Shown piece by piece: positions 17,219-40,425 of a DNA stretch of 64,000 nucleotides. Position 1 is the stretch's first letter. Each line of letters opens with the position of its first letter. Source of the stretch: Escherichia phage PECP20; sequence record OQ873415.1. The stretch is one strand, 5' to 3'. A program made the translations under genes and the position numbers. The notes under the pieces were generated by a model. It had not been told where the DNA came from. It saw nothing but the letters and a program-made list of their open reading frames with translations, and did not search any database.

Positions 17219-17767
17219 TTAACGAGCCCATTTGATGATTTCTGTAATCAAACCATTACGTTCGCTTGCATTAAATCCTATAATTTTGTTAGCACCATCA
17301 TGATTAAGTAATTGATACGTTTGGATTTTGTTATGAATTGCAAACTCTTCAAAATGTGAAATGACTGTATTAAAACCGAATGAAGACAAAGTAATAAGGT
17401 CGTCTTCAAAACTTTCAGTCATTTCATTACGTGTTAAAATAATTGTGAACACATCATGGTTTTGGCAAAGACGAACATAGTCCTGTTCATAAACATCAAG
17501 AACAGAGTCCGCATCTTGCCGAATACGTCCATAAACCCAGTTACTAATATATCCACGGTCTAACAGATAAATCTTAGTAGGGTCTAAATAATTCAACATC
17601 GTTTCGAAACAGCCAACTTCATTTCGAGACTTAACATCGAAACGTCCATCAACTGTTCGTTTAGGAAAATCAATCTTTACATATCTTTCACTAATTTCCA
17701 TTATGTCATTAATGAAAGTTGTTTTACCAGCATTATCTGGGCCGTCTACTAAAATAATTTTAGCCAT
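17219..17767 (-). CDS. thymidylate-kinase-like P-loop nucleotide kinase
   Basis: 182 aa; P-loop GPDNAGKTT; DRGY...Y lid-like motif; occupies part of the T4 beta-gt slot. Confidence 0.7.
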   Translation of the reverse strand: MAKIILVDGPDNAGKTTFINDIMEISERYVKIDFPKRTVDGRFDVKSRNEVGCFETMLNYLDPTKIYLLDRGYISNWVYGRIRQDADSVLDVYEQDYVRLCQNHDVFTIILTRNEMTESFEDDLITLSSFGFNTVISHFEEFAIHNKIQTYQLLNHDGANKIIGFNASERNGLITEIIKWAR

Positions 17768-17768
17768 T

Positions 17769-18668
17769 TTATTCCTCGATTACGACATCTTCGTATTTAG
17801 GTATATTATATGGTGAAGAAATTAAAGCATTAAAGTAGATGAACTCACCAAGACCTGGATGGAATACTTCTTCAGGATTTTCGAAATATTGAATCTTCGG
17901 GCGTCCTTTAAGAATTTGATAGTACTCAGTTTTAGTTGGTTTAAAAATTCGAATCAGCGCTTCTTCAGGATACTTATTTCTGTCGAAGCTATTATTTGGA
18001 TCGGTTATATAAAGCGGTTGACCTAATTGAATTGCACATTCAACCACTTGTTCAAAACGATAACATGGGTCACTAATTCGAAATGGATGAAAAATACCAT
18101 CTAGATGAATAGGAGCCAAATCACCTACAAGACGCTGCATGATGGAAGGACGTATAACTTTCTGAGTTACGATAATCTTATTACCATCTGCACCTGCGTT
18201 AACCAGCACTTCTTTTTGACGTTCATTCAACACGGTAGTTTGAAGTGAACGATTAACTGACAACATATCGGTTTTTAAGAATTCGTCAATATAAAAACGT
18301 TGTTTATTAGGGTCTGCAGTGATATTGAAATTGAATTCTACATCAAAAGCGCCGCCATAACCAGTGATATCTGTGATTAGAAAATCACAATCATAATAAT
18401 CAATTAATGAATCAACCACAAATTCATTTTCAGTCCAGAAATATTTACGAGTGTTATACGCGTTATCTTTATACCATAATGGAACAAACTTAAATTCTGG
18501 GAAAAGACGTTCGCATTCTTTAATATCAGATGCATTACGTGGATATGTAATCACATCACCCGGATTAGCACGGTGCAAATGAAGTTGGAAGTTGCCATCC
18601 TTAAGGATAGCATACTGTCCAGTTTCATAAGACCGCATACTCAAGATTGGTACGCGGAAAATAGCCAT
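17769..18668 (-). CDS. hypothetical protein (299 aa) in the beta-glucosyltransferase slot
   Basis: ORF between kinase and gene 42 homolog; no similarity to T4 beta-gt recognised. Confidence 0.6.
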   Translation of the reverse strand: MAIFRVPILSMRSYETGQYAILKDGNFQLHLHRANPGDVITYPRNASDIKECERLFPEFKFVPLWYKDNAYNTRKYFWTENEFVVDSLIDYYDCDFLITDITGYGGAFDVEFNFNITADPNKQRFYIDEFLKTDMLSVNRSLQTTVLNERQKEVLVNAGADGNKIIVTQKVIRPSIMQRLVGDLAPIHLDGIFHPFRISDPCYRFEQVVECAIQLGQPLYITDPNNSFDRNKYPEEALIRIFKPTKTEYYQILKGRPKIQYFENPEEVFHPGLGEFIYFNALISSPYNIPKYEDVVIEE

Positions 18669-19384
18669 TAGTCAAGGAATCCTTTAACATAATCAAAATC
18701 ACGTTCAAACACATGGGCGCTTACCATGGTATGAGTATAATCACCAACTTCTACACCGCATTCGTTAGCGATATAATGAAGTAATTTTCCTTGGAGATAA
18801 AAATCCAACTGCATAACAACAGCACAGTTCTGAGAACGCATATGACAGTGGGTATAAAGCTTACCATCACGAATATAATAAGTTACTGAGTCAGTACATG
18901 GATATTCAAGTGTTTCGTCCGAATCAAGCAAAGCCTGATCAGAACTTTCTAGAATTTGGAACACAACTCTTCGAGAGTTAGGTTTTTCTTTAAGTTCTTT
19001 TAGAAGAGTTGGTAATTGGGCCGCAATGCGAGGGCCATAGAAAGTGTTGAAGTTCGCCGGCAAAACATCTGATTTTGGTTTAGAAATAAATTTAGCGACA
19101 TTAGGATATGCCTTAAACGCTTCTTCTGCGTTGGTACCACCAGAAATCATAAACTTCCAGAAGTCTTCGGCATATTCATAAGAGATGCGGTTAATACGTG
19201 GGTCGGTCATTTTGAATGATGATGGAGTGTCAACAACTACTGTCATAGACCCAATTTCATTACAACGTCCAATACGAGAATCAGTTACGAATTCGGGGTT
19301 TTCTAAAATTTCACGATTGACTGCTTTAAATGCGGTTTGAAAATCTGCGGCTTTGATATATTTCATTGTGTTATGTTTTCCCAT
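18668..19384 (-). CDS. 42: dCMP hydroxymethylase-like (thymidylate synthase fold)
   Basis: 238 aa; thymidylate synthase-like core (PCTDSV...MRSQNCAVV); syntenic with T4 gene 42 but diverged. Confidence 0.7.
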   Translation of the reverse strand: MGKHNTMKYIKAADFQTAFKAVNREILENPEFVTDSRIGRCNEIGSMTVVVDTPSSFKMTDPRINRISYEYAEDFWKFMISGGTNAEEAFKAYPNVAKFISKPKSDVLPANFNTFYGPRIAAQLPTLLKELKEKPNSRRVVFQILESSDQALLDSDETLEYPCTDSVTYYIRDGKLYTHCHMRSQNCAVVMQLDFYLQGKLLHYIANECGVEVGDYTHTMVSAHVFERDFDYVKGFLD

Positions 19385-19426: not shown

Positions 19427-19666
19427 TTATTTGAATTTCTTGACAATGTTGATATAACGTAAAGCTTCAGAATCTATACTTCCAAGAACACTATGAAGGA
19501 ATGCATCAGTGTAGTATTCCAATTGAACAGGTTCTTTAATCACTTTAGCCGCTTTGGTTTCAAACAGGCCCATAAGGGCCTTTTTAAGAATTTGTTCGTT
19601 AGTGTTCAGTTTCATAGTCAAAATCTCTTCGTTAAGTTTATAATTAAAACTTTTTCTAGAAATCAT
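19427..19666 (-). CDS. hypothetical protein (79 aa)
   Basis: ORF; 4-nt overlap with upstream gene. Confidence 0.5.
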   Translation of the reverse strand: MISRKSFNYKLNEEILTMKLNTNEQILKKALMGLFETKAAKVIKEPVQLEYYTDAFLHSVLGSIDSEALRYINIVKKFK

Positions 19667-20823
19667 TCCGGGTACCTCAAAGCGTCATCAGAGTTAGTTA
19701 TATCAATAATAGATATGGAGTTTTCTGCTAACCCGTTTTTAGATAATTGACGTTTATAATACCTTTCACAATATGTACACGTTGACCCACAGATTTCATT
19801 AGCACAATCAAAATCTGGATGTCTGAACCACCTTTTTTCTAAAAAGCCATCTAACAAAGAGGTTTCAATATTTACTGTATGTGAAAACTCAGTCTCATTT
19901 TCAAGAGTGAAAATAGTCTCTAAAGGCTTCCACAGTTCTAACAAATTACCTTCAAACTTTTCAGAAGCGTATGCTTCAAGAACTTTCAAAATGTAGTCTG
20001 TGCTACCTGTACGTCCTGAAACTTTGAATTGAGTGATACCAATATCATTATAAAGTTTCAAATCTTGAGGACGAACAAAACGAGTTCTCAACCAGTTAAA
20101 TGGGTCTGTATCACGAGCTTTAATACAGTGCTGCATAGGATATCCATTTAAGGATTTAGCATCATCAGCGGTAACATCAGTACTATGGAAAATATAGCAA
20201 GAGTCACGATAACTACAATGTGTTGTATACCCTTTACCAGCATTAGAACAGAACTCATTTACAAGAACTTCAAATATTATATTGTTCTTATTGCAAAACT
20301 CTGCTGCACGCTTCAGGAAAGAAACTGAACGGTTCTTATGAATTCCGCAACAGACCTTTTTGATGTTATATTGGTCATGTAAGTATTTGATTTGAGTTAC
20401 CGCATCGACATGTAGAATTGTTGAAACTTCAATCTCAATATCTTTATTGACTTCACGAACAATTTCCATAACAACAGGGTTAGCGATAGTAATACGCCAT
20501 ACGCCTATTGACCAAAGATACTGAACATAATCCTGAATAGCTTTCTTCTTCCACTCAACTAGTTCTCTTTTTGAACCAGGATTTATCGTGTTGAGTGTAT
20601 AGTTAAAGCAAATACCTAATTCGTTACAACGTTTAACGTAGTCTTCTAACATCTTTTTGTCAACGTCAGGAAGCCTAAAATCAGGTCTGGCTGCTACAAA
20701 AGCCATTTCTCTTGTAGAGCCATATACTTCGTTTATCAAGCTATTAGGATAGGTTTTATTGAGCTCTACGATTTTATCAAGAAGAGCTAAATCAAAATTC
20801 GTTCCGATTTTAAAAGTATTCAT
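19663..20823 (-). CDS. hypothetical Cys-rich protein, possible Fe-S enzyme
   Basis: 386 aa; C-terminal C-x4-C-x3-C-x-Y-C cluster plus scattered Cys; family not assigned. Confidence 0.7.
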   Translation of the reverse strand: MNTFKIGTNFDLALLDKIVELNKTYPNSLINEVYGSTREMAFVAARPDFRLPDVDKKMLEDYVKRCNELGICFNYTLNTINPGSKRELVEWKKKAIQDYVQYLWSIGVWRITIANPVVMEIVREVNKDIEIEVSTILHVDAVTQIKYLHDQYNIKKVCCGIHKNRSVSFLKRAAEFCNKNNIIFEVLVNEFCSNAGKGYTTHCSYRDSCYIFHSTDVTADDAKSLNGYPMQHCIKARDTDPFNWLRTRFVRPQDLKLYNDIGITQFKVSGRTGSTDYILKVLEAYASEKFEGNLLELWKPLETIFTLENETEFSHTVNIETSLLDGFLEKRWFRHPDFDCANEICGSTCTYCERYYKRQLSKNGLAENSISIIDITNSDDALRYPE

Positions 20824-20879
20824 TTTTTTGCATCTCGCGTTAATTGATGCGATGGTTTTTGCAGGTCTTACTTAAATTA

Positions 20880-21281
20880 TTATAGATTTGGTTTATATGA
20901 TTTAAATGTTTCGAATTCGCCTTTATTCATAAGAGCTTTGAATTCGTCAGGACGCATAGCTTTGTCGTCGATAATCCAATCATATACTGGTTTATGTGTT
21001 AGCAAATTATGGTACTTCAAACCAATGTTTTCCAAGTTCTGAATCAGACTTGGGAGAATGTCAATTGCTATACGACCAGGACCTACCGACTTCATACCAC
21101 GGGCAGTGTAAAGCGTTATGGTATGCCCTGCATCATACAGGGCATTAATGGCAGACACCATTTCGACGTCTGGTTTGAAGTTCACGTAATCACGATTGTT
21201 ATTCCACTCTGTTATACAATCATCGACATCAAAACAAAGATTAAGCATGTTTTCTACACGGTGCATTAGATTCGTTCCCAT
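20880..21281 (-). CDS. HAD-superfamily phosphatase (sugar-phosphate phosphatase-like)
   Basis: 133 aa; N-terminal FDVDDCIT (DxD nucleophile motif). Confidence 0.65.
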   Translation of the reverse strand: MGTNLMHRVENMLNLCFDVDDCITEWNNNRDYVNFKPDVEMVSAINALYDAGHTITLYTARGMKSVGPGRIAIDILPSLIQNLENIGLKYHNLLTHKPVYDWIIDDKAMRPDEFKALMNKGEFETFKSYKPNL

Positions 21282-22951
21282 TGATGAGTGATATCGCCGC
21301 CGATTGGACGATAGGAAACACCAGTTTCTTTATCAGTTAGTACCCATTTACCAGGATTTTTTGTAATCAGAGTAGCCGTTACAGGTTCTGCTACGTCATA
21401 ACTAATAGAGCCGTCTTGAAGTACACGGCCCATGTTACGTAATTGCTTAGTCAGAAGTTCCATACCTTTATAATATGCGGCAACCGCTTTAAGTGGATTA
21501 TTCTTGAAATAACCACCTAATGCAATCCAGATAATTGCTACTGCCAAATGATGATACTCGTTAAACGAACTCATCTTTCCATATTTGTAAACTAATGGAT
21601 TGATGTTAATAGTCAAATTACAAGTTGTTTCATCAATAGTAAACTGACCCCAGGTCGGATTAGCATTGAATTCATCATAACCTGAAACAGCATAAAGCAC
21701 TTTAGCTTCATCATACAATTTTGGCCCGTAAATCTTGGTTTCACCAAAATATCCACGAGGGTCGATAAACTTGACTTCGCCGTTATCGGTAATCATAGTA
21801 TTACTGAAGTTCGGGTCACCATGAATAACAGAGTACTGTCCCTGAGAACGGTTATGATAACGAATAAGATGTTCTAAAGCTTGTTTCAACATTGGCTTCA
21901 GACGTCCAATCTTAGTGTAGTTCACATGTGTGATTTTACCAAATGAATCAATCAATGGCTGAATGCTTTCACAACGATCAATAACTTTCGTATAGAACTC
22001 TTTAGTGAAATCACGGCGAACAGTTTCAGGACTTACAAAATAAGTGTCCGTGCTGAATTTCAGTGCATCTAAAATTGCATCAACAATTTGTGGACGAGCA
22101 AGACTTGATTTGGATTTAATATATTCAAATGCCGGCTTACCTTTAATACGTTCCATTTCAAAATTATTTTCATTTACCGAAACTAACTGAGGAACTGAAT
22201 CTGATTTCACTTTCAAATACCATGAAATCTCATCTTTTTGAAGAGCTCGACCTTGTTCGGTTAACGCGAATTTAGTTACAGTTTCTTCGCCAATTTCAAC
22301 TGCATTAAAACTACGATTCAGTTCACGAACTTCATGAGCCTTTTCAAGTTTAGGCATATCACCTAAATCAATTAGATTCATAAGCTCTGATTTATTGAAT
22401 GCACTGCCGTAAAGGAATTCTACGAAATCACGACCTTTGCAGTATTCGTGAATTTCCTCATCAGTAGAACCCATGTAGAATTCCCAGTCTTTGAACTGAT
22501 AAATTCCTACAACATTACCACCTGTTGAACCTACGTTAGTGATATTTTCACCATCGAAATTATATCGACATTCATCACCCTTAACATAGATTGCGTTAAC
22601 ATTCCAAGACCATGAACCAAAGTCAGGAATAATATCACACCAGTTAACAATTACGTTATGGCCATCTAAATCTTTGTATAATTTAGCAAGAGCATAAGCA
22701 GAACCATACGCTTCATCAACTGTACGAATAGTCACATTGAACCCTTCTTGCTCGCAATAAGCTCGAACAGTTTCAGCAAATTTTGAATGAACTACTACAA
22801 TAATTTCATCTGCGCCAAGGTCAGAATAAATTGTATACAAATTGCTCAGAATAGTGTCTTGTTTATAGTTAACAAGCACCTTAGGAATATGGTGAGTAAT
22901 TGGATATAAACGAGTTGCTAATCCAGCACCAAGAATAACAGCTTTTTTCAT
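21266..22951 (-). CDS. bifunctional sugar-1-phosphate nucleotidyltransferase / APH-type sugar kinase
   Basis: 561 aa; N-terminal MKKAVILGAGLATRLYP (RmlA-like); C-terminal HGDPNFSN...IDPRG (aminoglycoside/choline-kinase-like). Confidence 0.8.
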   Translation of the reverse strand: MKKAVILGAGLATRLYPITHHIPKVLVNYKQDTILSNLYTIYSDLGADEIIVVVHSKFAETVRAYCEQEGFNVTIRTVDEAYGSAYALAKLYKDLDGHNVIVNWCDIIPDFGSWSWNVNAIYVKGDECRYNFDGENITNVGSTGGNVVGIYQFKDWEFYMGSTDEEIHEYCKGRDFVEFLYGSAFNKSELMNLIDLGDMPKLEKAHEVRELNRSFNAVEIGEETVTKFALTEQGRALQKDEISWYLKVKSDSVPQLVSVNENNFEMERIKGKPAFEYIKSKSSLARPQIVDAILDALKFSTDTYFVSPETVRRDFTKEFYTKVIDRCESIQPLIDSFGKITHVNYTKIGRLKPMLKQALEHLIRYHNRSQGQYSVIHGDPNFSNTMITDNGEVKFIDPRGYFGETKIYGPKLYDEAKVLYAVSGYDEFNANPTWGQFTIDETTCNLTININPLVYKYGKMSSFNEYHHLAVAIIWIALGGYFKNNPLKAVAAYYKGMELLTKQLRNMGRVLQDGSISYDVAEPVTATLITKNPGKWVLTDKETGVSYRPIGGDITHQWERI

Positions 22952-22993: not shown

Positions 22994-23136
22994 TAGTTAA
23001 AGCATTCATACTTTGCCTGTAGACCAATCATAATCCATCCAATTACAAGTGTTGGAATCATTACTGGAGCCGTTAAGCCCCAGTAGATAGTCATGGCAAG
23101 CATCAATAGTAAAAGTCCTATTGTTATTGCTTTCAT
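22994..23136 (-). CDS. small hydrophobic peptide (47 aa)
   Basis: ATGA overlap with stop of upstream SIS gene; hydrophobic; below ORF-track size cutoff. Confidence 0.35.
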
Positions 23137-23768
23137 TGTTCGCCTCGTAACATGGCACCTAGTGCACCACCAGGGTGGAACTTAAGGAAGTCATTAGAGG
23201 TAAATCCACGTTCAGACGAAAGGTTGATAGCAAACGTATCGATAAGCGCTAACAACAATGTAGTGGACATGGTCGGAGCCAGAGAATTCTCATCAACCTC
23301 TACCGCGATGCCTGTACAGAACGTATAATCAAAAAGAGCTTCGTATTCTTGCGGAATGTCAGGGTTACAATGTAACAGAATCTGTTTAACCTGAGGACGA
23401 ATCATACGAAGATGTTTAGCAACACCTATCATTTCTTCAGTCTTACCAGAACGACTGATGTGAACTAATACATCATTAGGTGCAATAAATCCTGCGTCGC
23501 CATGAGAATAATGCCCGGTGTTCAAATACATGCTAGGAATACCTAGTGAAGCAAAAGTCTCGGAAGCTTTAGTTGCGATATTAGCGTTCTTACCAACACC
23601 TGTAATAATTACTCGGCTTTCATAATTACTCAGTCCAGGGCGACGAAGAGTTTCAAGAATAGCATTATATCGGGCAGAGTTTTGACTAATTACTTTAGCC
23701 ATAGTGGCAAGAGATGAAGCTTGTTTTACGATTGCGTCAATAGCGATAGTGATTGGTGTAGTTTTCAT
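23133..23768 (-). CDS. SIS-domain sugar-phosphate isomerase (arabinose-5-phosphate isomerase-like, no CBS domains)
   Basis: 211 aa; ITGVGKNANIATK...HGDAG...ISRSGKT...HPGGALG closely resembles KdsD/GutQ SIS domain. Confidence 0.8.
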   Translation of the reverse strand: MKTTPITIAIDAIVKQASSLATMAKVISQNSARYNAILETLRRPGLSNYESRVIITGVGKNANIATKASETFASLGIPSMYLNTGHYSHGDAGFIAPNDVLVHISRSGKTEEMIGVAKHLRMIRPQVKQILLHCNPDIPQEYEALFDYTFCTGIAVEVDENSLAPTMSTTLLLALIDTFAINLSSERGFTSNDFLKFHPGGALGAMLRGEQ

Positions 23769-38140: not shown

Positions 38141-38611
38141 TTAATCATGTTTCCACACCCCATCGGTATTTGACCAAAGTCGCTGATTATCTGATCCTCG
38201 CCACAGCTTTTTGGTCGGAAGATTTTTCTCATACTTCCCATCAATAATAACATCAACATATTTAAGCATTTCTAGCTGTTTAATATCTTCAAACTTATAT
38301 CCTGTCCACAACCAAATGCTTTTATTGGGATAAAGATTTTTAATAGTTTGAACTACAGAGTGAATAACATCTCGGTTATCAGGATAGAGAGGGTCTCCTC
38401 CGGTTATAGTCAATCCTTCTATATAATCATTATTCAAACATTCAATTAATTGTTCTAGTGTTTCACCAGTGAATGGAATACCATTTCTAGCATTCCATGT
38501 TGATTTATTATAACACCCTTCGCATTTATGCAAACAACCTGTAACGAAAAGAACGACCCTGCAACCAGGGCCATTAACAAAATCGCAAGGATAAAATCTA
38601 TCATAATTCAT
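38141..38611 (-). CDS. nrdG: anaerobic ribonucleotide reductase activating protein (radical SAM)
   Basis: 156 aa; CLHKCEGC radical SAM motif; directly downstream of nrdD. Confidence 0.9.
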   Translation of the reverse strand: MNYDRFYPCDFVNGPGCRVVLFVTGCLHKCEGCYNKSTWNARNGIPFTGETLEQLIECLNNDYIEGLTITGGDPLYPDNRDVIHSVVQTIKNLYPNKSIWLWTGYKFEDIKQLEMLKYVDVIIDGKYEKNLPTKKLWRGSDNQRLWSNTDGVWKHD

Positions 38612-40425
38612 TGGTGTTTAACCCTATGCATGATTTCTTTATTTTTACCGAGATTAAATCCGCGTTCGTTCGGATTTCCCAAATAACCGCATGTCCTTCT
38701 TATAGTGTTCATCTTTTTAGGATCAGTTTCTCCACAAACTGAACAAACAAATCCGTTTTCAGTAGGAGTCATTTCATGAGTACTTCCACACGTAAAACAT
38801 TTATCTACTGGCATATTAACACCAAAATAATCTAAATGTTGTGCAGCATAATCCCACACGGCCTCAAGACCTTTTAGGTTATTTTTCATATCAGGAAGTT
38901 CAACATAAGAAATGTGACCACCTGTCGCAATGAAATGATATGGCGCTTCACGAGAAATCTTTTCAAACGGAGTAATATTTTCTTCTACTGAAACGTGGAA
39001 ACTATTAGTGTACCAGCCTTTATCGGTAACATCTTTTACGCTTCCATATTTTTCTGTATCAAGTTTACAGAAACGATAACACAAGTTTTCAGCAGGAGTA
39101 GAATATAAACTAAAAGCAAATCCAGTTCTTTCGGTCCACTGTTTAAGATGAGCATTCATTTTAGTTAAAATTTCTTGCCCAATATCACGACCGACAAGAA
39201 TATTCAATTCGTGAATACCAATGTATCCCAAAGACACTGAACTTCTACCGTTTTTAAATAACTCAATTATATCGTCGTCAGGTTTAAGACGAACCCCAAA
39301 TGCACCTTCTTGGTAAAGAATAGGAGCAACAGTCGCTTTAACTCCTTTTAAGGAACTAATTCTACACATCAAGGCTTCAAAGCACAGATCCATTCGTTCA
39401 TTAAATAACTCAACAAATTTCTGTTCATTGAACTGTGTTCCAATATAAGAATCTAACGCGATGCGAGGAAGATTCAGTGTTACAACACCGAGATTATTAC
39501 GTCCATCAAGAATTTCATTACCAGTCGAATCTTTCCATACACTCAAGAAACTACGGCAACCCATTGGAGAAACTGGAACTGAAGAACCAGTAATAGCTTT
39601 ATTATTCTTAACCGAAATAATGTCAGGATACATTCTTTTGCTTGCACATTCTAACGCAAGTTGTTTAATATCATAGTTCGGATCATCTTTATAAAGATTA
39701 ACACCTTCTTCAACAAACATAACAAGTTTAGGAAAAATAGGAGTTATTCCATCACGACCAAGACCTTTAATCCGATTTTTCAGAATTGCTTTCTGAATCA
39801 TTCGTTCGGTCCAATCAGTTCCAGTACCAAATGTAATTGTTACAAAAGGCGTTTGCCCGTTTGAACTAAAAAGAGTATTTACCTCATACTCATAAGCTTG
39901 AAATGCGTCATATACATCTTTTTCTGTTTTAGATTGAGCATAATTCAGAATGTCTGGTATTTGCCATTTTTCTGCATCTTCAACATGTTTAGCGTATGTA
40001 CGTTTAACATAAGGAGAAAGAACTTTATCGACATTCGCAAATGTAGTTCCGCCGTACTGATGTGAAGCAACTTGTGCAGTAATTTGTGCCATAATTGCAG
40101 TAGCAACACCAATCGATTTAGGCGTTTCAATTTGAGCATTGCCCAATTTAAATCCGTTCTCAAGCATCCCCTTTAAATCGACTAAACAGCAATTGGTAAA
40201 CGGAAGAGCAGGAGAATAATCAATATCATGCATGTGGATAATTCCACTTTCATGCGCATTCATAATAAAAGACGGGACCATATTTTTGGCAATGTGCTTA
40301 GACACAATACCAGCCATAAGGTCCCGTTGAGTTGGAAAAACACGAGAATCTTTATTAGCATTCTCGTTCAAAAGATCTTTATTAGTTTTATAAATTAATC
40401 CTTCAATTTCTTTTTCAATTTTCAT
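38608..40425 (-). CDS. nrdD: anaerobic ribonucleoside-triphosphate reductase (glycyl radical enzyme)
   Basis: 605 aa; C-terminal glycyl radical motif RRTCGYLG and Zn-ribbon cysteines. Confidence 0.95.
   Translation of the reverse strand: MKIEKEIEGLIYKTNKDLLNENANKDSRVFPTQRDLMAGIVSKHIAKNMVPSFIMNAHESGIIHMHDIDYSPALPFTNCCLVDLKGMLENGFKLGNAQIETPKSIGVATAIMAQITAQVASHQYGGTTFANVDKVLSPYVKRTYAKHVEDAEKWQIPDILNYAQSKTEKDVYDAFQAYEYEVNTLFSSNGQTPFVTITFGTGTDWTERMIQKAILKNRIKGLGRDGITPIFPKLVMFVEEGVNLYKDDPNYDIKQLALECASKRMYPDIISVKNNKAITGSSVPVSPMGCRSFLSVWKDSTGNEILDGRNNLGVVTLNLPRIALDSYIGTQFNEQKFVELFNERMDLCFEALMCRISSLKGVKATVAPILYQEGAFGVRLKPDDDIIELFKNGRSSVSLGYIGIHELNILVGRDIGQEILTKMNAHLKQWTERTGFAFSLYSTPAENLCYRFCKLDTEKYGSVKDVTDKGWYTNSFHVSVEENITPFEKISREAPYHFIATGGHISYVELPDMKNNLKGLEAVWDYAAQHLDYFGVNMPVDKCFTCGSTHEMTPTENGFVCSVCGETDPKKMNTIRRTCGYLGNPNERGFNLGKNKEIMHRVKHQ

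Follow-up and report, generated by a model that had tools for sequence, protein, structure and literature searches.

What does a conserved gene contribute to a DNA-modification pathway in which every step already seems to be taken? The DNA of phage RB69 has been shown to carry mono- and di-arabosylated 5-hydroxycytosine (5hoC), not hydroxymethylcytosine, and every step towards this structure already has an assigned enzyme (PMC13326640, 2026); the conserved product gp50 of the same gene module appears there in Table 1 only, as a 'sugar or heterocycle reductase' with a structural match to 5d88 and without discussion, and in an earlier survey as having 'homologs among peptidases' (PMC8056088). 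Here the orthologue of gp50 is analysed in Escherichia phage PECP20 (sequence record OQ873415.1), in a stretch of 64,000 nucleotides, called the window below, which is 99.4% identical to Escherichia phage p000v of the genus Mosigvirus, in the RB69 group. The reading that we lean towards, by a modest degree, is that gp50 is a prephenate-dependent, O2-independent (deoxy)cytidylate C5-hydroxylase, which would back up an O2-dependent enzyme during anoxic infection. Its family, fold, invariant cysteines, gene linkage and phyletic pattern are set out below, and from these we infer a chemistry, a substrate (mononucleotide as against DNA), the metals, independence of oxygen and an anaerobic role. A full-text search of the accessible literature returned no prior link of U32 proteins, prephenate or chorismate mutase to phage DNA modification. 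The protein and its parts are placed in the window as follows.

19663-20823, minus strand: 386-amino-acid (aa) protein of the peptidase U32 family, RB69 gp50 orthologue, from ATG to stop
19966-20544, minus strand: U32 domain by Pfam (PF01136), residues 94-286
20125-20250, minus strand: barrel-top cysteine region C192-x10-C203-x5-C209-x23-C233 with invariant E190, presumed [4Fe-4S] site
19768-19806, minus strand: C-terminal Cys4 motif C340-x4-C345-x3-C349-x2-C352, presumed second metal centre

The family assignment is given by Pfam, where Peptidase_U32 (PF01136) matches residues 94-286 with an E-value of 7.3e-11 (42.2 bits against a cutoff of 22.4); most homologues carry the same domain, and in PHROGs the protein belongs to phrog_5757, 'peptidase'. 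An AlphaFold2 model built on 83 homologues (predicted local distance difference test, pLDDT, 93.2; predicted template-modelling score, pTM, 0.91) has a (beta/alpha)8 barrel like that of 5d88, the only solved U32 member, and its top structural neighbours are U32 proteins and generic barrels. An earlier reading of this DNA, made from the sequence only, had named fold assignment as a check, and the model together with profile comparison returns a U32 barrel. Sequence searches of the Protein Data Bank gave no match at E<=1 with the single protein, and only a spurious match to BIM1 with a profile of the family. It is scarcely credible that the protein is a genuine peptidase or collagenase, as the GenBank annotations 'peptidase' or 'collagenase-like protease' would have it: no catalytic mechanism has been established for the U32 'peptidases' (PMC5727448), the gene context is entirely one of nucleotide and DNA modification, and the conserved residues are cysteine clusters and basic residues, with no protease triad.

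Among the four U32 paralogues of Escherichia coli, RlhA is the only significant profile match (hhalign probability 80.6%, E-value 1.3e-5, 205 columns), and the alignment places the invariant E190, C203 and C209 on RlhA E161, C169 and C176, which are needed for the formation of 5-hydroxycytidine (ho5C) (PMC5727448). These three residues (the cysteines as CX5C) and the motif FKVSGR are invariant in an alignment of 83 sequences, A1, and in a MAFFT alignment FKVSGR falls on a KIEGR-type motif, KxxGR being common to UbiU, TrhP and RlhA. In UbiU, C169, C176, C193 and C232 are demonstrated ligands of a [4Fe-4S] cluster (bioRxiv 10.1101/587956); C233 of the phage protein (YPMQHC, YPxxxC) lies beside UbiU C232 (YPTLC, YPxxC) in the MAFFT alignment, in a different column. 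The sequence-only reading had considered a rough resemblance of the C-terminal motif to the U32 cysteine signature. The family relationship is real, as Pfam and the RlhA profile show, but by these alignments the genuine signature cysteines are C203 and C209 (C169/C176 of RlhA and UbiU), not those of the C-terminal motif. The invariant C192 and C158 are candidates for the remaining [4Fe-4S] ligand position. RlhA carries a C-terminal cysteine group as well (C572, C580, C611 and C614, with C580 and C611 being essential; PMC5727448), so that the layout of U32 barrel cysteines plus C-terminal cysteines has a precedent.

The C-terminal motif reads C-ANEI-C-GST-C-TY-C at residues 340-352, that is, C-x4-C-x3-C-x-Y-C, in both the translation and the DNA. 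Motif and 386-aa open reading frame (ORF) are thus as the sequence-only reading had described them, save that the motif stands 35-47 residues before the C-terminus and not within the last ~30 residues. In a set made up of the query and 120 homologues, with identities from 86% down to about 46%, C340, C345, C349 and C352 are each kept in 121 of 121 sequences, so the conservation that was held to matter for this motif is there; C158, C192, C203, C209 and C233 are likewise kept in all 121 and C177 in 118, while C66, C72 and C159 vary, and the same columns are invariant in A1. Since all four cysteines are invariant across these sequences, the motif is not a product of chance and is under selection, and a conserved Cys-ligated metal site is very likely. 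To that extent the earlier suggestion of an Fe-S cluster holds, although the metal may be [4Fe-4S], Zn or Fe: the motif is probably a Cys4-ligated metal centre with either [4Fe-4S] or mononuclear Zn/Fe. The model has a pLDDT of about 94-95 across this block.

The likeness of the motif to the CX3CxΦC signature of the radical S-adenosylmethionine (SAM) enzymes, which the sequence-only reading had remarked on, would as a functional assignment call for a non-canonical enzyme in which the C-terminal CX3CX2C binds and cleaves SAM; such a protein would resemble ThiC, which has a C-terminal cluster on a TIM barrel and the matching spacing. This is very improbable. The Radical_SAM Pfam model has no match in the U32 protein even at E<=1, though it detects NrdG of the same window, which served as a positive control; radical SAM structures do not appear among its top structural neighbours, and there is neither a hidden Markov model (HMM) match nor a fold-level match to radical SAM enzymes or ThiC. 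The cysteines concerned (345-352) stand after the barrel, not in the beta1-alpha1 loop, and the fourth, C340, is invariant, so that no iron site is expected to be left open for SAM. The wider family points the same way. A profile search of 1.84 billion representatives returned 1701 relatives at E<=1e-3 (50% identity clusters), 488 of them at E<=1e-30, and spacing was surveyed in the 131 full-length proteins among the best 150 of the 1701. About 52 of the 131 have CX3-4-C-X2-C-X2-C and about 48 have CX3-4-C-X3-C-X2-C, so that CX2CX2C and CX3CX2C both occur, the former in about half of the wider family; a few have inserts of 9-22 residues between the cysteine pairs, and the cluster is absent in 20. 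By this comparison the CX3CxΦC likeness is a trait of the close subfamily only.

Chorismate mutase is a prephenate-forming enzyme, and three independent arrangements tie U32 to enzymes that form prephenate. The first is found in T4-like phages, where a chorismate mutase lies directly 3' of U32 in 15 of 17 loci taken from IMG/VR and GenBank; only the Mosigvirus type, to which the window belongs, and one Klebsiella-phage type depart from this. The stop codon of U32 is overlapped in Serratia phage LC53 and Enterobacter phage Entb_45 by the gene of a type II chorismate mutase (Pfam CM_2, E-values 1.7e-11 and 2.4e-10, respectively), which precedes the ThyA homologue, and the phage mutases keep equivalents of R11, R28, K39, E52, S84 and Q88 of EcCM. 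The mutase was found by tblastn in 51 phage records, and among the matches listed every record has it at the U32/ThyA-homologue locus. Within the genus Kanagawavirus, Entb_45 has both U32 and mutase and Kosakonia phage 305 has neither; since the two are present or absent together, they behave as a cassette. The second arrangement is seen on unrelated contigs of uncultivated phages, whose U32 homologues have 46-58% identity: the U32 homologue adjoins a 3-deoxy-D-arabino-heptulosonate 7-phosphate (DAHP) synthase with a C-terminal CM_2 fusion in five loci (L039, L040, L042, L043 and L053), and DAHP synthase alone in two (L006 and L028). In the third, a metagenome-assembled genome (MAG) of Erysipelotrichales (L063), a stand-alone CM_2 protein (E-value 7.8e-19) lies near U32, with a Tmk-like kinase and a glycosyltransferase homologue next to it. 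RlhA and TrhP need prephenate for their function, on genetic evidence (PMC5727448, PMC6599085), and 18O labelling has shown prephenate to be the oxygen donor for UbiU/V (PMC10990095).

The full array at this last locus (L063, 9594-13296) is an observation in its own right: here the U32 homologue stands with an RmlC-like dTDP-sugar epimerase, a metallophosphoesterase, the chorismate mutase, the Tmk-like kinase and the glycosyltransferase homologue, a composition which suggests that a hydroxylated base of this kind carries another sugar there.

Outside the T4-like phages, the U32 gene is found where a base hydroxylase would be expected. A total of 46 such loci, with 39 distinct proteins, were collected from IMG/VR, ENA, Logan, JGI and GTDB, and flanks of roughly 8-10 kb were examined at each. 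A glycosyltransferase like RB69 gp46:47 neighbours the U32 homologue in 28 of the 46, an AfhE-like enzyme in 18 and an arabinose-5-phosphate isomerase in 10; a typical array runs glycosyltransferase, isomerase, AfhE, in some cases the DAHP synthase-mutase fusion, and U32. An ORF of the thymidylate synthase family lies within these flanks in a single locus (L030, a canonical ThyA, Pfam E-value 2.6e-72), and the ThyX motif was not found in the viral and metagenomic loci checked. In the minimal module, the order is NTP pyrophosphohydrolase (phrog_173), Tmk-like kinase (phrog_761), glycosyltransferase (phrog_3891), U32 and the alpha subunit of DNA polymerase III (Pol III); these PHROGs were assigned on one contig (L005), and sister contigs of roughly 41-49 kb have the same order by phmmer. 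Two of the families, phrog_761 and phrog_3891, are those of gp45 and gp46:47 in the window. In T4 the corresponding set is dCTPase, base-modifying enzyme, dNMP kinase and DNA glycosyltransferase; the module is laid out on the same plan, U32 taking the slot of the base-modifying enzyme, and so points to a mononucleotide substrate. Other U32 contexts likewise belong to the metabolism of mononucleotides and include dCMP deaminase, thymidylate kinase, uracil-DNA glycosylase (UDG), the nucleotidase NT5C, deoxynucleoside kinase (dNK) and nucleoside deoxyribosyltransferase.

These neighbours also bear on two other assignments. In some distant homologues, where dCMP deaminase, Tmk and dUTPase are neighbours and ThyA is missing, the U32 protein might be thought a novel thymidylate synthase; this is not favoured for the phage of the window, which has unmodified thymine and a cluster given over to 5hoC. 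The other is that the substrate is the polymer, with U32 acting after replication as an O2-independent hydroxylase of cytosine in phage DNA. All characterised U32 enzymes of nucleic acids (RlhA and TrhP) act on polynucleotides, and some loci (L032-L034) have no recognisable pyrophosphatase or kinase. The phage protein, however, has none of the additional domains with which RlhA (DUF3656) and TrhP bind nucleic acids, its gene is often found with those of mononucleotide enzymes (NTP pyrophosphatase, Tmk-like kinase, dCMP deaminase, dNK and NT5C), and a complete replacement of cytosine is easier at the level of the nucleotide pool. We therefore regard action on DNA as unlikely, and no less so when it is framed as an O2-independent hydroxylase of cytosine in DNA, or of nucleotide pool and DNA together, with prephenate as donor and Cys4 as electron outlet. 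Were it to act on DNA, the enzyme would be an anaerobic DNA base oxidase unrelated to TET, and would take the founding step towards glycosylated 5-hydroxypyrimidine DNA in many, mostly uncultivated, phages of gut anaerobes.

In the mechanism proposed for the mononucleotide hydroxylase, the U32 enzyme would hydroxylate C5 of a cytosine nucleotide without O2, most likely converting dCMP to 5-hydroxy-dCMP, with prephenate as the oxygen donor, which would yield phenylpyruvate and CO2. A [4Fe-4S] cluster at the top of the barrel would be held by C203, C209 and C233 together with C192 or C158, and the Cys4 site of C340, C345, C349 and C352 would probably be a second redox or structural metal centre; as a redox centre it would, with the barrel cluster, carry off two electrons. 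A two-electron oxidation has been proposed for U32 chemistry, and an electron path is needed (PMC10990095). UbiU-UbiV supplies two clusters from two subunits, and a single chain may supply the second through its Cys4 motif. More speculatively, C158 or C192 could be either the fourth ligand or a C6 nucleophile as in other pyrimidine C5 enzymes. The product would then be brought to the triphosphate by the kinase and incorporated by the polymerase, and the glycosyltransferases would add arabinose. In RB69-like phages of facultative anaerobes, such an enzyme would be the anoxic counterpart of the O2/flavin-dependent ThyA-like synthase, a pairing which would parallel TrhP and TrhO, UbiU/V and UbiI/H/F, and phage NrdDG and NrdAB; in many uncultivated phages of anaerobes, U32 would be the sole hydroxylase.

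Characterised relatives offer both likenesses and differences. RlhA (YdcP), the E. coli synthase of 5-hydroxycytidine at C2501 of 23S rRNA, has the U32 TIM barrel of gp50, shares with it an E-F...C-x5/6-C signature and a further group of essential or invariant C-terminal cysteines, and places a C5 hydroxyl on cytosine, the outcome predicted for gp50; it depends on prephenate and on Fe-S biogenesis (PMC5727448). RlhA is a protein of 653 aa with DUF3656 that acts on a ribosome assembly intermediate, whereas the phage protein has 386 aa and no extra domain, has CX4CX3CX2C in place of CX7C...CX2C, and is linked to deoxynucleotide genes. UbiU and UbiV are also U32 members and form a functional unit with two clusters; in the phage protein C169 and C176 have equivalents, UbiU C232 probably has a counterpart, and a second Cys4 site is carried on the same chain. 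UbiU/V is a heterodimer that works with UbiT on a lipid substrate, whereas the phage enzyme would be a single chain, with a short motif near the C-terminus as its second site, and the similarity of UbiU to the phage protein is only weak and N-terminal.

In the window, the genes around U32 follow each other on the minus strand, in the direction of transcription, as DNA polymerase, isomerase, AfhE-like enzyme, HAD phosphatase, U32, a 79-aa ORF, ThyA homologue, glycosyltransferase and Tmk-like kinase. Those of the module, and two reductase genes that give context, are as follows.

23133-23768, minus strand: arabinose-5-phosphate isomerase, RB69 gp55 orthologue
21266-22951, minus strand: bifunctional nucleotidyltransferase and kinase, RB69 gp52:53, AfhE-like, for UDP-arabinose synthesis (PMC13326640)
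20880-21281, minus strand: HAD-type phosphatase, RB69 gp51, AfhF-like (PMC13326640)
19427-19666, minus strand: 79-aa ORF, RB69 gp49, phrog_8601, overlapping the U32 stop codon by 4 nt
18668-19384, minus strand: ThyA-family 5-hydroxy-dCMP synthase, RB69 gp48 orthologue, with the signature RSQN...LD (D169N + N177D)
17769-18668, minus strand: glycosyltransferase, RB69 gp46:47 orthologue (arabinosyltransferase 1), phrog_3891 (PMC13326640, Table 1)
17219-17767, minus strand: thymidylate-kinase-like nucleotide kinase, RB69 gp45 orthologue, phrog_761
38608-40425, minus strand: anaerobic ribonucleotide reductase NrdD (context)
38141-38611, minus strand: NrdG, radical SAM activase of NrdD (context)

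In RB69, it has been shown that the ThyA homologue gp48 forms 5-hydroxy-dCMP with flavin and with oxygen from O2 (18O2 labelling), and that the other genes of the module serve UDP-arabinose synthesis and transfer to DNA (PMC13326640). The synthase (RB69 gp48, DLP3 gp80) thus has the same product and pathway as those proposed for U32 and lies two ORFs downstream of it; its fold is unrelated to U32, it uses flavin and O2, and it is found in phages of strict aerobes without U32.

The location of the U32 gene inside the sugar module had led the sequence-only reading to see in its product a candidate DNA sugar transferase or sugar-tailoring enzyme. In this arabinose module the gene has the HAD phosphatase on one side and the ThyA homologue on the other. 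The transferase can be set aside, as the protein is a U32 TIM barrel without a glycosyltransferase fold or HMM match, and the module has a separate glycosyltransferase at 17769-18668. A redox or tailoring enzyme acting on a sugar or sugar nucleotide, or a 'heterocycle reductase', would agree with that position, with the frequent neighbours (AfhE, isomerase, and epimerases or an RmlC-like enzyme) and with the label given to RB69 gp50 in Table 1 of PMC13326640. The RB69 base, as determined by NMR and mass spectrometry, contains only unmodified arabinose units on 5hoC, and for the published di-arabinosyl-5-hydroxycytosine there is no tailoring step still in want of an enzyme (PMC13326640). The base is made without a U32 gene by DLP3 and other phages, and homologues occur in modules of the L005 type that have no sugar-nucleotide genes but only NTP pyrophosphatase, kinase, glycosyltransferase and U32. 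A role on sugars would moreover leave the linkage to chorismate mutase and DAHP synthase unexplained, and no U32 member is known to act on sugars; we judge such a role to be rather more doubtful than action on DNA.

T4-like phages encode tRNAs, and a TrhP- or RlhA-like enzyme could in principle hydroxylate host or phage tRNA or rRNA during infection, the more so as the characterised proteins nearest to gp50 are prephenate-requiring hydroxylases of C or U in RNA. This seems less probable still: the host already has RlhA, TrhP and TrhO, phages of very different kinds carry the gene within modules for DNA modification and nucleotides, the protein is without the RNA-binding C-terminal domains, and U32 was not found in phages without the 5hoC pathway. 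In the RB69 work itself, RlhA and TrhP are named as unrelated routes of pyrimidine hydroxylation, and a link to gp50 is absent (PMC13326640).

Several smaller features of the neighbourhood were noted. The 79-aa ORF has no cysteine and no Pfam match, and occupies the slot of the chorismate mutase of sister genera. It might have been a degenerate chorismate mutase, a candidate that was rejected, as it has no CM_2 match, lies in a window where a chorismate mutase HMM finds nothing, and coexists with a true chorismate mutase in four genera; in Pectobacterium and Yersinia-type phages (L016, L022, L025 and L029) it stands between U32 and the mutase, so that it is a separate conserved small partner. 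A sigma70-like promoter match (TTTAAA-16-TATAAT, 10/12), at 20879-20906 on the minus strand, falls in the 56-nt gap just ahead of the U32 gene; it is a match to the consensus only, and the regional total of such matches is below the shuffle expectation.

The distribution of the gene can be compared with the oxygen ecology of the hosts. The 5-hydroxy-dCMP synthase is present in 373 phage records, including 57 of Acinetobacter and 20 of Rhizobium, and the U32 gene in 221 records, all with at least 80% identity; among the matches listed for U32, the host genera are all Enterobacterales or Shewanella, with no Acinetobacter or Rhizobium. In Acinetobacter phage Konradin and in DLP3 the module is present and U32 is missing. 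Among 100,044 species-representative genomes, seven U32 loci were found, and their sources, MAGs or isolates, are anaerobes mostly of gut type (Phocaeicola, Romboutsia, Lachnospiraceae, Erysipelotrichales, an unclassified Bacillota MAG and BRC1), and from this small number the clade is taken to be essentially viral. The presence of NrdD and NrdG in the window shows that the phage is equipped for anoxic replication, with oxygen-sensitive enzymes kept beside aerobic ones. A comparable system is known for ho5U34 of tRNA, which is formed by the prephenate-dependent U32 enzyme TrhP without O2 and by the unrelated, O2-dependent TrhO, an arrangement that has been proposed to suit oxic and anoxic life (PMC6599085). 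A phage U32 enzyme beside a ThyA-like flavoenzyme would follow the same dual logic, with the difference that the substrate of TrhP and TrhO is U34 of tRNA and that TrhO is a rhodanese, whereas the O2-dependent partner in the phage is a thymidylate synthase homologue.

Against a prephenate-dependent cytidylate hydroxylase, a number of points have to be set. Similarity to the characterised U32 hydroxylases is remote: hhalign comparisons with UbiU, TrhP and UbiV are of low probability and not significant, and the NCBIfam models for UbiU and TrhP give 18.5 bits against a cutoff of 440 and at most 18.1 against 534. Because these scores are so far below the cutoffs, the protein is orthologous to none of the characterised subfamilies and, on these comparisons, belongs to a separate, largely viral one. 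The canonical spacing CX6CX15-16CX3-4C (in UbiU, CX38C) is only partly kept, C203 and C209 being present and the positions of RlhA C192/C196 not being cysteines. The scarcity of thymidylate-synthase-family genes at the non-T4-like loci holds within the 8-10 kb flanks, not for whole genomes. The phage of the window has no chorismate mutase of its own, the HMM for this enzyme finding nothing at E<=1 across the whole window; the host of the phage encodes PheA and TyrA. Dhakavirus WG01 (L071) and Kosakonia phage 305 (L070) have the arabinosyl-5hoC module without U32, the HAD phosphatase directly abutting the ThyA homologue or the kinase, and since several enterobacterial phages with the module are without it, U32 is dispensable; the comparison of these loci identifies the U32-chorismate mutase cassette as an insertion/deletion polymorphism, even within one genus. 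The correlation with aerobes and anaerobes comprises few independent lineages, and in the literature of 2024 an in vitro reconstitution of a U32 hydroxylase was still missing (PMC10990095).

If the hydroxylase reading is correct, the unexplained conserved gp50 of RB69 would gain a role in the recently described arabosyl-5-hydroxycytosine pathway, and phage DNA would stay protected during replication in the gut, where anoxia disables the O2-dependent hydroxylase. Prephenate-dependent U32 hydroxylation would reach beyond RNA and quinones to include DNA precursors and viruses, and hydroxylated, glycosylated pyrimidine DNA would be common in uncultivated phages of anaerobes. As a small, single-chain U32 protein with a soluble substrate (dCMP), the enzyme could allow U32/prephenate chemistry to be reconstituted in vitro. 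For phage therapy and engineering, the reading predicts that DNA modification and restriction sensitivity will differ with oxygen.

Among the non-T4-like loci, some further arrangements were observed. In two uncultivated phage loci (L007, 648-2786, and L008), an ORF of 712 aa consists of a UDG-family domain (PF03167) fused to a PHP/Pol III-alpha N-terminus, and the same phage has a dCMP deaminase and U32. A metagenome contig (L003, 12160-15428) and an unclassified Bacillota MAG (L064) have a distant second U32 paralogue of 377 aa with a CX5CX3CX2C tail, with a radical SAM/SPASM protein and a nucleoside 2-deoxyribosyltransferase as its neighbours; after the first U32 gene come NT5C, a PnuC-like transporter and a deoxynucleoside kinase, and in the Bacillota MAG the array looks like a nucleoside-modification pathway. 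At both of these loci, and in BRC1 (L066) and Phocaeicola (L068), a protein of 265 aa (L003, 7185-7982) without a Pfam or PHROG match always lies directly upstream of U32, for which it is a candidate partner.

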